Source: Perna viridis
Lineage: Eukaryota
Length of the DNA: 64,000 bases
Assembly (NCBI GenBank): GCA_037379345.1
Contig: CM074513.1
Location: 32,236,885-32,300,884 of the forward strand
Reading direction: 5' to 3'
A model generated the notes under the pieces. The model had not been told where the DNA came from. It was given only the letters and a program-made list of their open reading frames with translations, and did no database searches. The position numbers and the translations under genes were made by a program. Numbering within the stretch: position 1 is the first letter of the stretch; the number at the start of each line of letters is the position of its first letter. Positions 7,380 through 57,008 of the stretch are shown here, piece after piece.

Positions 7380-8850
7380 ACTTGATCTAAAAGGTCAAGG
7401 TCACTTAAAAGTCATGAAAGTAGCCGAATCATTGTCTTATGGTGATTCAACCACGCACCGAAAATGGATGGCGTACATAAAACGACAAAAAAGTTGTGTC
7501 CCAGACACGAATCCATGTAAACAAAATATGTAATTTCGACCTGGAGGTCAAGGATCAAGGCCATGTACAGATCATAAATGTACGCGATGCCTATGTTGAA
7601 GAACGAAGTAGTTATCCCGGAAATGAGGTCGAAGTTCAAAGGTCATAAACCTCTATCCATGGAATGTGACACATCTTAAGGCGATCAATCCACATGCCAA
7701 ATATCAAAAGCCCACATCGAAAGACAAAAAAGTTACAGCCTGGACACAAGTTTTTCACAAAAAAATACAGAAATTTGACCTTGCGGTCACTGTTCAAGGT
7801 CATATGTCCAAATCTATGGTACGTGACACATCATCTCCGAGAGATCCACCCACATGTCAAATATCAAAAGCCCACATCGAAAGACAAAAAAGTTATAGCT
7901 TGGACAAGAGTTTGTCAACGACAAAAAATGGAATTTGAGCTTGAAGTCGAAAGTCAAGGACATAAACCTATATCCATGGAATGCGACACATCGTCTTAGG
8001 GCGATCAATATACATGTCAAATATCAAAAGCACACATCGAAAGACAAAAATGTTACAGCCTGGATACAAGTTTGTCACAAAAAAACCCACAGAAATTTGA
8101 CCTTGAAGTCACAGTTCAAGGTCATAGGCCCAAATCTATGGCATAAGACACATCATCTTGACGTGATCGACCCAATGCCAAAATATCAAAAGCCCACATG
8201 AAAAGATAAAAAATTACAACCCGGACACAGGTTTGTCATTGAAAAAATAGGTATTTGACCTTGAGGTCAAAGTTCAAGGTCATACGTCAATATCCATGAT
8301 ACGAAACACGTCGTCTTTAATGAACTACCAACATGCCAAATATCAAAAGCTCACATTGAAAGACAAAAAGTAACAGCCCGGACACAAGTTTATCACTAAA
8401 TAACAGTAATTTGACCTTGACGTCAAAGTTCAAGGTCATACGTCAATATCCATGATACGAAACACGTCGTCTTTAATGAACTACCAACATGCCAAATATC
8501 AAAAGCTCACATTGAAAGACAAAAAGTAACAGCCCGGACACAAGTTTATCACTAAATAACAGTAATTTGACCTTGACGTCAAATTTCAAGGTCATACGTC
8601 AATATCCATGATACGAAACACGTCGTCTTTAATGAACTACCAACATGCCAAATATCAAAAGCTCACATTGAAAGACAAAAAGTAACAGCCCGGACACAAG
8701 TTTATCACTAAATAACAGTAATTTGACCTTGACGTCAAATTTCAAGGTCATATGTCAATATTCATGGTACGATACATATCGTCTTAAGGTGAACTACCCA
8801 CATGCCAAATATCAAAAGCCTACATCGAAAGACAAAAAAGTTACAACCCA
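7380..8850. repeat. Tandem array of ~156-160-bp units (TTGACCTTGA.GTCAAAGTTCAAGGTCA...AAATATCAAAAGCCCACATCGAAAGACAAAAAAGTTACAGCC), Helentron-type satellite
   Basis: Unit starts near 7775, 7934, 8097, 8255, 8411, 8567, 8723; the units from 8255 on are near-identical; related array at 34350-34715. Confidence 0.88.
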
Positions 8851-9700
8851 GAGGGTGATAGATAGTTTCACCTTGAAAATACATTAACAACGATTTTCTC
8901 GGGGAAACAAACTGCTCTATCACCCGCTTAGCTATTTAAGAAATAATTCGTAGAGGGGTAGATTTGTACTCATTTTAACATGGGTTTGACATTTATATTC
9001 TCATTTAACAAATCGCTGTCGCTCGGTGTTCAATAATCGAATAGAAATGCCGTACCCATGTTAAAATGAGTACAAATCTACCCACGGAAGAAATTATTTT
9101 TTTTCTAATATGACAAATACGGTAATTTTTTGTGACAAAAATTTCCCTAGGCGTAGCCAAAATAACGGCTGTTCCGTTTAACCTCCCCCGTATGGAAGTT
9201 GGATTAAACTTGTATATTTATGTCATCGTATGTGTTAAATGTGTGTATTATTATAATTTATTTCAATTAGATAACATCTCAGCCATTAAATAATCGCGTG
9301 AACGTTTTTTTAATGAGTGTTTTGTCTCGAACGAAAACGAAAGAAAAGAGACAGTGCGCATGTGTTAAAGGTGGGTTGTACCGACATAAACTGTTTGACG
9401 ATATGAAGACGTCATATTAGAAATGTTATTTATAATTAGCACAATCTGTCGCACTTTGAATTAACAAATTTACACCGGTCTTTGTCATCTATATCATTCC
9501 CATACGGGAGGCGCCACACAGGGACCATATTATAGAATTCGTATTAAGAATAATATTCCCCGTTCATGAAAATATTTTATTATTACAGTATAATCACAAT
9601 AATAATGTTTTGACTTAACATAAAAGGAATACATGTAAAAGGATTCGGTTTCTTCGCCTCATCCTTTTATGTGAAGTAAAGACACTATCATTGTCTATAT
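8851..9700. mobile_element. Cluster of hairpin-bearing non-autonomous elements (possibly Crypton-like)
   Basis: Inverted repeats at 8853-8925, 8940-9098 (29-bp perfect core arms GGGTAGATTTGTACTCATTTTAACATGGG), TTTCTAATATGAC 9102-9114 / GTCATATTAGAAA 9411-9423, 9185-9198 / 9497-9511, and 9590-9700. Family assignment is inference. Confidence 0.55.
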
Positions 9701-19800: not shown

Positions 19801-22800
19801 AAATCAAGTAAATTGCAATACATAGAGATGCTAAAAAAATCTTTTGTGTTATAACAAATATTTTGTTTTTAGTTTGATAGAGAATACATAAAGTGAATAC
19901 TGTAAAAGTTATTTTATTTAAGAATTGGCTATGATAAAAATTTTGTCTGTTGAAAAATAACATAAATTTTCCATGTGCATATTGTTTATTGCGCGAAGTG
20001 CAATAAACAAAATATGCACATGGAAAATTAATGTTATTTTTCAATAGACAAAATTTTTATCATAACCAATTCATATAAATTAATATTAAAACATAGTTTT
20101 ATCTTTAAACAAGAGAAAAATAGCTCTGAATTTAACTGAATAAGGGGGTGTCAATATTTTTTTATCCATTGAGATATAACAAAATCATTTTAACCAATCA
20201 GATTACAGTATTTATCTCAAATTAATTTATTTGTGGATATCAATTTTTGTGGATTGCAGACATATCATTAGTTCGTGGTTTGACATTCCCACAGCACAAA
20301 TAAATGGAAAATATGTCTGCTTAGTTTCATGGTTTGAATCAATCATGAAATCCATGAATATTGGTACCCCATGAATATTAGTACTTTCACAGTAAAAAAA
20401 AAGGTCCAGTAAATGTAGCTTTTTTTTACAAGTTTTGTGTTCACTTAAAAAGAAGTCGTAAAACAAGTTCTTTTTTTAAACTCATGTTTAATTCTTTCGG
20501 TTTTCAATGTCAAATGCCTACATTTTAATTATATATTTTCTACAGTTATCCAGATATTAATGTACTTCACCATACACATCAAAGACTTACTTGGTAAATT
20601 CTGGTTGCATTTCACTTGAGAACAACCAGTTAGCTACAGCTGATGGTTCAATGATTTGGGTTTTTAACAACTTGTCCACTAAAACAACCATCATCTGAAA
20701 CATACAAAAATGCATTGAGTATTGGATATCCATAAAAGACAGGTTTCAATTTGCCACACACATAATCATATCAATAATAATTAATTGAATATCTTATTCC
20801 CCCTTTCAAACATGCAATATTGATCAGAGAATGTACTTTGATACCTAATTCATCAAAAATAAACCACTTTAAACACCTTAGGGCTATTCCTGAAAAAAAA
20901 TGTGTCAGGAGGTTGGGGTGTGGGCGGTTATTTTGAACATTTCTTACAAGACGAATGTATTGGATAAAATTTTAATGTGTTGGTGGTACCCCTATATATC
21001 ATGGGCATTCTGCCACCAGCAAACATTTTTTTATGGAATAGCTCTTATCAGATTTTAAAGGAGAAAGGAATTTTGAAGTGTTTATTTGTAGAACCATTCT
21101 TAGATATTATGAATAACTACATTTTGTAAAGTCAAGTTTATATCTTTTATTGCACTGACATACAAAAAGTCTATAGACTTACTTGTTGATGAGATCTCCA
21201 TACTTCAAACATGGTCCTTAACACCCATATTTGCCCTTCCTCTGTATCTGCTAATAACTTCAGGATGTGATGAAATCTGTGAGACAACATATCAATACAA
21301 TAAATTTAATGTCTTAAAGAAATCCTAGTTTGAAACTGTTGTACCTATTGTCCAATTATGTTAACATACAATCTTTAAAAATAGACGTTTTCCTGGTTAC
21401 ATATTCTAAATCTTCTCATAGAAAAGTTGGTCTGCTATAATTTGTAATAAAGCTCAATACACGTTTCTAAGAGGGGGAACCAAGGTTCTAGCAGGCAAGA
21501 CTGGACCCATGCAGCTATCAAATGTATGTAAAATTTTTCCATAATACAGGGGCGGATTCACACACTATGAAAAGGAAGAGCGCCAGCTGGGGTTCCTCAG
21601 AACAAGAGGCTCCCAGGAGCCTGAATCACTCACCTGGTTGAATTTTGCCTTTCAAGGGCAATAATAAAACAAGTTGTTCAACAATTTTGACTCAAGGAAA
21701 CTTTGATAGGACTTATCTTAAGGATCATTTCAGTAAATGAATGTCTAAATGTATCATAGTTTTCAAGACATTGGCTGAAAACTGTAATAAAAAAAAAACC
21801 TCCCAAGAGCAATAACTCTTATAAGAAGGCATCTGACAAATTTTATACCTGAAGACTTTTGTAGTCCTAAAAATAAGGATCATTATAGCTATTGAAAGAA
21901 TTTGGCTAAACCTAACAGTTTTGGAGATATATGCGAAAAACTACTGTCTGACCCCTATGTTCTATTTTTAGTAACAGTAGCCATGTTTTTCAACGGATCG
22001 AAAAACACCACTTCAATTCTATGCAGGAAACCCCAAGGAACACTTATACTAAGTTTTGTTTCAATTGGTAAAATAGTGTCAGAGGAGAAGATTTTTGAAA
22101 GAAATAATATTAAAAATAGCAAAAAACTTTAAAAAAGGACAACAACTCCAACATGGCTTAATAGATTAAAATGAAAATTTGAATGCAGATAGATCTCATC
22201 ATGCTGAACACTTTTACCCCTTTCAAAATGGGCTAAACCTAACCGTTTTGGAGATATATGCAAAAAACTATTGTCTGACCCCTATGTTCTATTTTTAGTA
22301 ACAGTGGCCATGCTTTTCAACAGATCAAAAATCCCCACATCAGTTCTATGCATGATACCCTAAGGAACATTCATACCAAGTTTGGTTCCAATTGGTCAAG
22401 CAGTGTCAGAGAAGAAGATTTTTAAAAGAAATAACATAAAAAATAGCAAAAAACGTTGAAAAAGGCCAATAACTCCAACATGGCTTCATAGATTAAAATG
22501 AAAATTTGACAGCAGATAGATCTCATCATGCTGAACACTTTTACCATGTCAGAATTTGGCTAAACCTAACCGTTTTAGAGATATTTGCGAAAAACTACTG
22601 TCTGACCCCTATGTTCTATTTATAGTAACAGCAGCCATGTTCTTCGATGGATCAAAAGTCCCCACAACAGTTCTATGCAGGATACCCCAAGGAACATTCA
22701 TACCAAGTTTGGTTCCAAATTGTTAATGACAACGACTGACACCAAGTGATGGCAATAGCTTATAGAACAAAATTTGCCATTTTTTGTCAATTTTACACAT

Positions 22801-43539: not shown

Positions 43540-44592
43540 CTGAATTTGTAGTAAATGAATTAAAAAAAAAACTCCAATTCTAGTATGAAATCGATATATT
43601 GTAAACTTTTTAATGTATTTTTTTTCTGGAATTATTCCAGAATCTTGGACGACTGGAATTATTATACTTATTTACCAATAAATAAGGGGTCTCAAACAAA
43701 CCCAAGTAATTATAGACCTATTACTTTAATTAACTGCATTGGAAAGCTATTTACATCGAGTTTAAACATTAGAGTAAATTTCTTTGCCAATAAGATTTCT
43801 CTTATATCGGAGAATCAATCTGGTTTTTGTAAAGGATATGCAACTGTAGATAATGTTTTTTTGTGTTACATGCACTTATTGAACTGTATTTTACTTTTGG
43901 CAAAAAGCTTTTCTGCACATTTATTTATTTTAGAAAGGCTTTTGACACAGTTTTTTAGAATTTGTCTTTGGCAAAAGTTAAAGTTGTATAGCATAATGGG
44001 AAAATGTTTTAATATTATATTTAATATGTACAAAGGTATAAAATATTGTGTAAGATATAACTGAGTAACTTCTGATTTTGTTCATGTAACATTGGCGTTA
44101 GACAGGCAGAGAACTTTTCACCCTTTCTTTTCATGTTATTTTTAATGACTTAGAGGAATATTTAAGAAATTTAGGAGGAGCTTCGCTTGATGTGTTGAAA
44201 CAGAAATTTTCTGATGAATTACATATATACTTTGAATTGTTTGTCATTTTATATGCAGATGATACTGCTATTTTATCCGAATAAAAAATGGTATGCAACA
44301 GTCCCTAAATATATTCCAGTCATATTGTGATCTATGGAAATTAGATGTAAATGTAAAGAAAACCAAGGTGATGGTGTTTAGTAAAAGGATAGTCCAAAGA
44401 TAAATATGAATTTACACTTCAAGGCGCTAAATTAGATATTGTTAAATCTTTTTCATATCTTGGCGTTATCTTCAAATACAACGGTACATTTTTTTGATAC
44501 TAGAAAGAAGTTGATAGACCAAGCGCAAAAGTCTTTGCATTTTATATATAAATGCATCAGAATTGAAATCATTCCTATTGATTTACAGTTAA
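43540..44592 (+). pseudogene. CR1/L2-type LINE ORF2 RT fragment
   Basis: KG....PSNYRPITLINCIGKLF, ISENQSGF..G.ATVD, GVRQ, LYADDT (~44250) and VNVKKTKVMVF; many stops and frameshifts. Confidence 0.85.
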
Positions 44593-44593
44593 C

Positions 44594-44750
44594 TAAGAAA
44601 TAATTTATCGAGGGGGTAGATTTTAACATGGGTACGGCATTTATATTCGATTATTTAACATCGAGCGACAGCGAGTACAAATCTACTCCCAGAAGGAATT
44701 ATTTCTTTTCTAATATGAAAAATACGGTAACTTTTGTGACAAAATGTTTC
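44594..44750. mobile_element. Second (partly deleted) copy of the 8937-9140 hairpin element, core inverted
   Basis: Flanks co-linear with 8937-9140; core CGAGCGACAGCGA is the reverse complement of 9013-9025. Confidence 0.8.
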
Positions 44751-45204
44751 TAAGCAAAACAGAAAATGCCATTTATGTAATACTAGTGATGTCGGTGATG
44801 AGTCTCATTAGTTATTTATATGCAAATATGACCATTTAGCTTCTCAAAGATGTAAACTTATTTCTAGTTACTTTCTTAAACATCCAAACATATCGAAAAT
44901 GATAGGATTACTCTCTATATGTAATGTTGAGGTGTATAAACGGTTGTCGTTATTTATTAAGAAGATAGCCTTATTGTTCTAGTTCTAGAATTATTTGTTA
45001 TTTATTGTTTTCATGTTTGATGATGATGAATGTGCTTCATTTATATTTAATAATGTTATGAAGTTATTTTTTCGTGTTATTTAAATGTATCTGTTTAATT
45101 CATATATCTAATATATTAGGTATCAAATATGTTTCAATTTATTTTGCTCATATCACATGTATTCCATGTCTGAGTTTACTAAATGAAAAATCTTGAATCT
45201 TAGA

Positions 45205-51940: not shown

Positions 51941-53818
<1,878 letters not shown>

Positions 53819-56894: not shown

Positions 56895-57008
56895 AGACAT
56901 AATTGTGAAAATTATATTATAAGACTTGGGCGTTTAATGTATTAAACACTGTAACGTTTAATACATTAAACGCCCAAGTCTTATAATATAATTTTCACAA
57001 TTATGTCT
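56895..57008. repeat. Perfect inverted repeat, 53-bp arms, 8-bp spacer
   Basis: 56895-56947 is the exact reverse complement of 56956-57008. Confidence 0.95.

Follow-up and report, generated by a model that had tools for sequence, protein, structure and literature searches.

Two related hairpin sites in the window

The window analysed here, a 64,000-nucleotide stretch of the Perna viridis genome, holds two related sites, copy 1 and copy 2, each carrying a hairpin. Their features are as follows (window coordinates).

8936..9422, minus strand: copy 1, a full-length non-autonomous element of body type M1; ends from an alignment of 30-90 genomic copies together with empty-site and nested-insertion comparisons
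8938..9102, no strand: terminal hairpin of copy 1, imperfect, 165 bp; marker state.xxxxx.
9013..9025, plus strand: hairpin tip of copy 1 in the inverted state, core TCGCTGTCGCTCG
9090..9114, no strand: internal junction of copy 1, ICR-like, complementary to the two joined element ends
9323..9353, plus strand: small body stem-loop of copy 1; holds a second GCGNNAGC motif in relatives, degenerate in copy 1
9411..9422, no strand: far end of copy 1, the 5' end of the sense strand; inverted repeat of 9103-9114
44593..44744, minus strand: copy 2, majority core orientation; marker state ....--.
44662..44674, plus strand: hairpin tip of copy 2, core CGAGCGACAGCGA, in the family-majority orientation

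Both sites are members of a non-autonomous family of hundreds of copies, here called family A. The preliminary description had placed the element at 8937-9140; the hairpin is as described there, but the element runs from 8936 to 9422, and the 13-bp inverted repeat noticed at 9102-9114 and 9411-9423 is present. The minus strand of copy 1 is the sense strand of the parental tyrosine recombinase (YR) gene, the gene direction being taken from the longer copies L136 and L137. The internal junction of copy 1 consists of the end of the inner hairpin arm plus the 12-bp repeat of the far end. The hairpin of copy 1 folds with −42.4 kcal/mol (z = −11.4), and none of 200 shuffles folded equally well. Two deletions within the hairpin of copy 2 have removed 10 nt from the outer arm and about 40 nt from the inner right arm; the copy ends near 44744, the body missing beyond about 35 nt. 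It interrupts a decayed LINE reverse-transcriptase frame (window 44000-44900) in which a YADD motif is visible.

Co-oriented flanks around an inverted core, the observation from which this work started, were confirmed: 9013-9067 matches 44620-44674 in inverted orientation (95%), and 9068-9140 matches 44673-44744 directly (89%). The accompanying claim that the asymmetric positions of the hairpin are swapped is correct for the inner markers and the core but not for the outermost marker, which is unswapped in both copies. Set against the family majority, it is copy 1 that has inner markers B and C and the core inverted, with outer marker A in place. The mini-hairpin motif GCGACAGC lies on the minus strand in copy 1 (9013..9025) and on the plus strand in majority copies. 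The second GCGNNAGC motif, in the body stem-loop, was found on the same strand in 34 of 79 bodies and on the other strand in 0 of 79. Public contigs over copy 1 reach only 26-27 nt into the element at its right junction and do not phase its orientation in other samples.

The window also contains tandem arrays of 156-bp (7692-8849) and 327-bp (21897-22726) units, both with dispersed relatives, and copy 1 lies directly after the first. We take these arrays to be of the type usual in bivalve repeat-bearing mobile elements. Eight further tandem units of 228 bp, 97% alike, occupy 51957-53770; by their period and their minus-strand reading they presumably resemble polyubiquitin.

Family A copies and their ends

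The genome searched was a 723-Mb assembly of 46 contigs. With copy 1 as query there were 651 candidates, of which 40 were scored. The junction of hairpin and body, which lies outside the invertible part, supplied a 23-letter pattern; it matches the genome exactly at 140 places, its reversed control at none, and 90 of the 140 were analysed. The element is about 490 bp long and consists of TTAAG, the 165-bp imperfect hairpin, immediately after it the 12-bp repeat, then 325 bp of body, and at the far end the repeat once more in inverted form. There are two types of body, M1 and M2, which are separate internal deletions of a longer element, more of whose sequence is kept in copies of up to about 870 bp; the family is non-autonomous, as the preliminary description had proposed. 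Copies differ by about 6% from their own majority sequence, and the only variation they share is CpG decay.

The ends at TTAAG and TTAGAA are set by a nested copy (L066), an empty-site homologue (L047 versus L219), and a head-to-tail joint (L363). Both motifs belong to the element, and neither is present in empty sites. No target duplication was found in the flanks of 76 two-ended copies, where the only preference is for AT-rich sequence, and the 4-6-bp terminal direct repeats of fungal and oomycete Cryptons are absent from family A. The empty-site comparison covers one copy of family A and five of the related family B (see below); these five show precise insertion without duplication, and a sixth is one base off. 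The joint at L363 is the one end-to-end joint found in the genome; it has the predicted letters and unites two different families, so it fixes the ends without being proof of a circle. The family A copy there stands head-to-tail with a member of a third hairpin family (L363:1220-1510, 290 bp), whose terminal motifs are as in family A and whose hairpin has a relative in L068. Rfam models returned for the hairpin were only sub-threshold microRNA-precursor models, which match any long stem.

Remnants of the parental recombinase gene

Longer copies of family A carry extra sequence with a reading frame directed towards the hairpin; the decayed copy L136 has 1.2 kb of such further sequence and a hairpin remnant. 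Two pieces of a Crypton YR gene are kept in these copies (remnants in L135, L136, and L137), representing only the first ~150 residues, i.e., the N-terminus and first helix. The N-terminal piece in L136 is 47% identical to the Mytilus YR P0110 (pairwise E 4e-11), the second piece matches the same protein with a pairwise E of 3e-4, and a genome-wide search with P0112 finds the second piece within the same copy, L136 (E 6.8e-4). P0110 has DUF3504 and phage-integrase domains; it and P0112 are the full-length relatives, both of them YRs that match DUF3504 or phage integrase, and the nearest named proteins are from Mytilus, which suits a bivalve host. An exhaustive search of representative sequences with the remnant gave 13 homologues (best E 1e-14), and homologues of the first L136 piece run on into a helix that matches the second; one of them has DUF3504. 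The link between the remnants and YRs came only from this full representative search: Pfam gave no match on the L136 frames, a word-indexed homologue search with the 53-aa piece gave none, our own profiles (380-570-aa YRs; 10 N-termini) gave no significant match to the remnants (best E 1.9-2.9, and none), and the best ESM Atlas score, 0.83, was under the lead threshold.

Because longer copies contain remnants of a YR gene, family A is a non-autonomous element of Crypton type with its hairpin at the 3' end, as had been suspected. The autonomous partner that was to encode a tyrosine recombinase or an HUH protein has been traced in part: there are YR remnants and YR-encoding sister families, but no HUH domain among the 27 frames scanned and no intact YR of the family's own. 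The catalytic part of this YR is lost in all copies found, and searches of the genome found neither an intact YR copy of the family A lineage nor a second copy of the parent interior. The catalytic R, HxxR, H/W, and Y residues are present in the homologue P0110, and HxxR-W-Y in the sister families. Non-autonomous copies would have been mobilised in trans by a YR no longer intact in the assembly.

Another YR-encoding element, with its own 140-bp hairpin, lies at L191:378-2996. It was rejected as the autonomous parent: its YR points away from the family A hairpin, it has no interior in common with L136, and it has its own hairpin. We read it as a second Crypton nested in a family A copy with a truncated, homogenised hairpin. 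At L187/L223 (G000 C11:23.91 Mb) there is a single 379-aa open frame, 45% identical to P0112, in which the catalytic HxxR and H motifs are altered and which may be a domesticated Crypton gene.

An end architecture common to YR elements

Full-length YR elements in the genome (L203 and L204, which are 4.3 kb long and 97% identical, L206, and L213; range 4.3-4.5 kb) have the same layout as family A: around a single YR gene, the reversed 5' end is repeated just before a long 3' hairpin. The asymmetric inverted repeat measures 12-21 bp and the terminal hairpin 165-195 bp. In family A and in L203/L204/L206 the two ends, once joined, have their complement in the internal junction, except for the last 2-3 nt of the hairpin end. 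Among 27 of the 47 frames of at least 60 aa in the full-length sister elements, those that were scanned, the only domains were DUF3504, phage integrase, QRICH1, and one weak MARVEL match; no reverse transcriptase, gag, HUH, polymerase, or telomere-resolvase domain was found in these 27.

On the strand opposite the gene, purine-purine mismatches stand to pyrimidine-pyrimidine mismatches as 8:0 in majority hairpins of family A (p = 0.008); the bias is weaker in family B (6:1, p = 0.125), and the inner family of L191 has 4:3. The same strand of majority hairpins has tandem GA facing GA, and its tips are GCGACAGC in family A and GCGAAGC in family B. Both tips fit the motif GCGNNAGC/GCGNAGC, also written GCG(N)NAGC, a very stable mini-hairpin (PMC13037366). 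The L203 hairpin has the tandem GA and lacks the mini-hairpin motif.

Within 10 kb around 20 DUF3504 loci, such a hairpin occurred at 8 and was clearly tied to an element at L203, L204, and L206. Long palindromes are not specific to YR loci, since control stretches gave 46 matches in 506 kb, many of them from AT-rich arrays, and we therefore claim no enrichment. The window itself has a long imperfect hairpin at 19919-20075 (65-nt arms, 94%), of the same family as the hairpin that adjoins the DUF3504 locus L198/L205, and a perfect 53-bp inverted repeat with an 8-nt spacer at 56895-57008, unrelated to family A.

Core orientation and hairpin damage in family A

Orientation was determined in 106 copies selected on sequence other than the core: the junction pattern supplied 89 (one duplicate dropped), and 17 came from the 30 copies found by an interior search, the remainder of which were already included or had no junction. 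Family A hairpins were scored at four nested asymmetric markers. The core has the majority, copy 2-type orientation in 67 copies and the inverted, copy 1-type orientation in 8, and is uncallable in 31; an earlier scoring of 90 copies had given 53, 6, and 31, respectively. Inverted cores are thus found in 8 of 75 callable copies, about 1 in 10 (95% interval 5-20%; p = 1e-12 against 1:1). Copy 1 is of the minority and copy 2 of the majority orientation. The count over genomic copies that the preliminary description had called for shows recurrent inversion, not a one-off template switch.

The boundaries of the inversions vary (.xxxxx., ..xxx.., ...xx..,.xxxx..,.xx.x-., x.x-xxx), and in many events inversion and homogenisation occur together. 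Clean inversions are less common than homogenised arms and deletions: 54 of 106 hairpins are of full length, 35 are internally deleted, and 17 have no outer end, and the outer marker is homogenised in 10 of the 54 full hairpins. In one copy, L119, the outer marker is swapped on both arms. Inverted copies occur in both body types, have the same divergence of about 6%, and share no diagnostic body site. It had been considered whether the two orientations form separate monophyletic subfamilies; on a tree of 58 bodies, 12 changes were needed for 12 inverted copies and a single clade was rejected (AU p = 1.3e-4), a result driven largely by the M1/M2 deletion types, whose unrelated middles are aligned together, and obtained with 58 rows that include finds made with an inverted query. 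The 14 inverted copies hold 5 private mutations mirrored on both arms where 1.9 would be expected (p = 0.024), a slight excess that is absent from the 41 unchanged copies (6, expected 6.7).

Family B and the timing of the changes

Family B encodes a YR and is young, its copies being about 1% off L206, which is full-length with a near-intact YR. It is represented by 243 candidates (L206:3000-7460, L213, L253-L362; G000 C5:13.46 Mb, C12:15.13-15.16 Mb). Identity between copies reaches 100%, internal deletions have arisen independently many times, and on C12 four or more copies with a near-intact YR stand 8.6 kb apart; the family may have been active recently.

All 98 exact junction matches of family B were scored. 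Full hairpins without swapped markers numbered 24, full hairpins with swaps 12, deleted hairpins 44, and hairpins truncated or otherwise broken 18; in 5 of the last 18 nearly the whole hairpin is missing through one identical deletion at a five-base repeat. Of 49 callable cores, 10 are inverted. Each of the two families shows six or more boundary patterns, and in L318 all seven scored markers are swapped. Copies of equal body length differ in the state of their hairpins. At L320:1495-1954 the outer arm has been replaced by a fold-back copy that extends about 16 nt beyond the internal junction.

Among family B copies without a substitution in ~110 bp, 37 of 45 are already rearranged, and the proportion does not rise with divergence; unchanged copies are not significantly younger (p = 0.12). 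Nor are inversions more frequent in the older family A than in family B (8 of 75 versus 10 of 49, p = 0.19). Two sets of copies are duplicates of single insertions. L305, L306, and L307, whose flanks are 99-100% identical, comprise one intact hairpin (L306) and two deleted ones, and in the other set, L282 and L323, flanks are 97-99% identical and the two copies are in different states at an arm marker. Since duplicates of one insertion differ, at least some such changes arise in the chromosome after insertion. This evidence amounts to one marker swap and one deletion, both in family B; no informative duplicate pair was found in family A.

Origin of the inverted core

We consider host template switching between the hairpin arms, after insertion, to be the probable main cause of these changes, the inverted core of copy 1 included. 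It is favoured by the existence of one majority orientation, the varying boundaries, the recurrence in both body types, and the differing duplicates of family B. Template switching between imperfect inverted repeats produces homogenised arms, inverted spacers, or both (PMC8604942). A switch to the opposite strand would invert the stretch between two switch points, a switch within a strand would copy one hairpin arm onto the other, and slippage at short repeats, to judge from the deletion joints, would delete part of the hairpin. We give appreciably less weight to the possibility that most of the changes date from transposition itself, through copying or repair of a folded single-stranded intermediate whose arms are mismatched, although early rearrangement in family B (37 of 45) together with the lack of excess inversions in the older family A also fits damage at insertion. 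A folded single strand would likewise suit the element ends, the complementary internal junction, the mini-hairpins confined to one strand, and the outer arm of L320 as a fold-back copy past the internal junction. Yet the duplicates that differ place at least some events later, a divergence of ~1% would still leave very many generations, and in several copies the outer end is lost near the tip, a pattern like that of chromosomal breakage and repair. Post-insertion switching and damage during transposition are mutually compatible.

The preliminary description had viewed the two orientations as flip/flop isomers, arising by terminal hairpin resolution of the parvovirus or poxvirus type or by site-specific inversion through a YR. 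This now seems very improbable: both orientations do recur, the enzyme of the family is a YR, L119 has the outer marker swapped on both arms, and L318 all seven scored markers, but 8 of 75 and 10 of 49 are both far off 1:1, and the boundaries are variable with no fixed one, by which the reading is largely refuted. Homogenised states, which together with deletions are commoner than clean inversions, are unobtainable by inversion alone, duplicates of one insertion differ, and the 27 scanned frames of full-length relatives offer no HUH, polymerase, or telomere-resolvase domain. A hairpin-bearing intermediate is possible for reasons of end architecture; the core flip is no evidence for it. That architecture, a short asymmetric inverted repeat at the 5' end and again just upstream of a 3' hairpin, without target duplication, matches Helitron2 (PMC3627910), and the family might be a non-autonomous Helitron2/Helentron whose 3' hairpin is unusually long and which acquired Crypton sequence. 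We think there is little chance of this, as 0 of 14 Helitron Rep (PF14214) loci share element sequence within 1.5 kb, a single YR gene lies within this layout in L203, L204, L206, and L213, and the hairpin is 165-195 bp instead of 20-30. It is hardly credible that assembly or polishing errors at a palindrome created the inverted copies, even though the longest perfect stem, ~32 bp, is near common k-mer sizes. At the inverted copy L003, one error-free 61-nt contig among the public short-read contigs of run X10 links the unswapped outer marker to the swapped inner marker without mismatch, and X2 public contigs agree on the inverted state; inverted copies are therefore not only an assembly artefact, with the reservation that the X10 run may come from the source sample itself. 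A simple flip would also not be expected to give partial or homogenised states or mirrored mutations.

A possible role for the hairpin

Why the hairpin exists is a separate question from why its core flips. Because of the internal junction and the one-strand features, we put forward, as a tentative model that may well prove wrong, that this animal Crypton group moves as folded single-stranded DNA. Both ends would anneal next to each other on the internal junction and so form a duplex site for the YR, the hairpin would mark the strand, and the YR would join the ends and integrate the circle by single-strand exchange. The strand used would be the one opposite the YR gene, 2-3 bases would stay unpaired, and the tip mini-hairpin and purine-purine mismatches would mark the strand. 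A cruciform or a double-stranded circle is possible instead of a folded single strand.

The flip is a known and ordinary mutational process, and it is the end structure that is the lead worth following. No description of this end layout for Cryptons was found in the papers accessible to the search, and the layout may already be recorded in Repbase, Dfam, or supplements. According to PMC13565253, the mechanism of Crypton transposition lacks experimental demonstration. The exact ends, the complementary internal junction, and the strand-biased hairpin are concrete substrates for a YR assay, and family B, ~1% off a full-length element with a near-intact YR, supplies enzyme and substrate together. 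If true, the folded-strand model would make these elements the first eukaryotic case of a tyrosine recombinase transposing folded ssDNA and would tie Cryptons to the end structure of DIRS elements. Elements with a layout that mimics Helitron2 may be misfiled. The ~200 scored copies also serve as a natural experiment on how unstable palindromes are in an animal germ line.

Comparison with known systems

The flip/flop ends of parvoviruses and poxviruses are two inverted-complement forms of an imperfect hairpin, equimolar and made with a fixed nick. In the families described here the isomers are not equimolar and the boundary is not fixed. Template switching at imperfect inverted repeats (PMC8604942) has the same outcomes as seen here, i.e., arm homogenisation, spacer inversion, both in one event, and recurrence; the difference is that they are read here from two transposon hairpins that carry three to four nested markers and are present in ~200 dispersed copies. 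At integron attC sites the substrate of the YR is one folded strand that contains unpaired bases (PMC3458562); we propose this as an analogy.

Helitron2/Helentron elements (PMC3627910) share with the present elements terminal inverted repeats that are asymmetric, of which the 3' one immediately precedes a terminal hairpin, and the absence of target duplication; they differ in that the enzyme here is a YR and not RepHel, and the hairpin is about six times longer. The internal complementary region (ICR) of DIRS elements lies near the 3' end, its 5' half complementary to the element start and its 3' half to the element end, and DIRS1-type elements also resemble ours in having a YR and no target duplication (PMC8969392). 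Unlike DIRS1-type elements, ours had no reverse transcriptase or gag in the scanned frames and no inverted terminal repeats, and the 3' half of the region is extended to an 80-95-bp arm.

Cryptons of the CryptonA/DUF3504 group (PMC3212892, PMC13465315) have, like the present elements, a single YR gene with DUF3504 and phage-integrase matches, no reverse transcriptase, abundant non-autonomous deletion derivatives, and no true target duplication. These papers report Cryptons with short direct repeats or, in animal groups, without terminal repeats, the 4-6-bp terminal direct repeats being assigned to fungal and oomycete Cryptons and none to animal ones in PMC3212892. Unlike the Cryptons described, the parent YR here has an additional N-terminal domain of ~50 aa without a Pfam match, and three structural features occur together in the elements: an asymmetric inverted repeat of 12-21 bp, a hairpin of 165-195 bp at one terminus, and an internal junction to which both ends are complementary.
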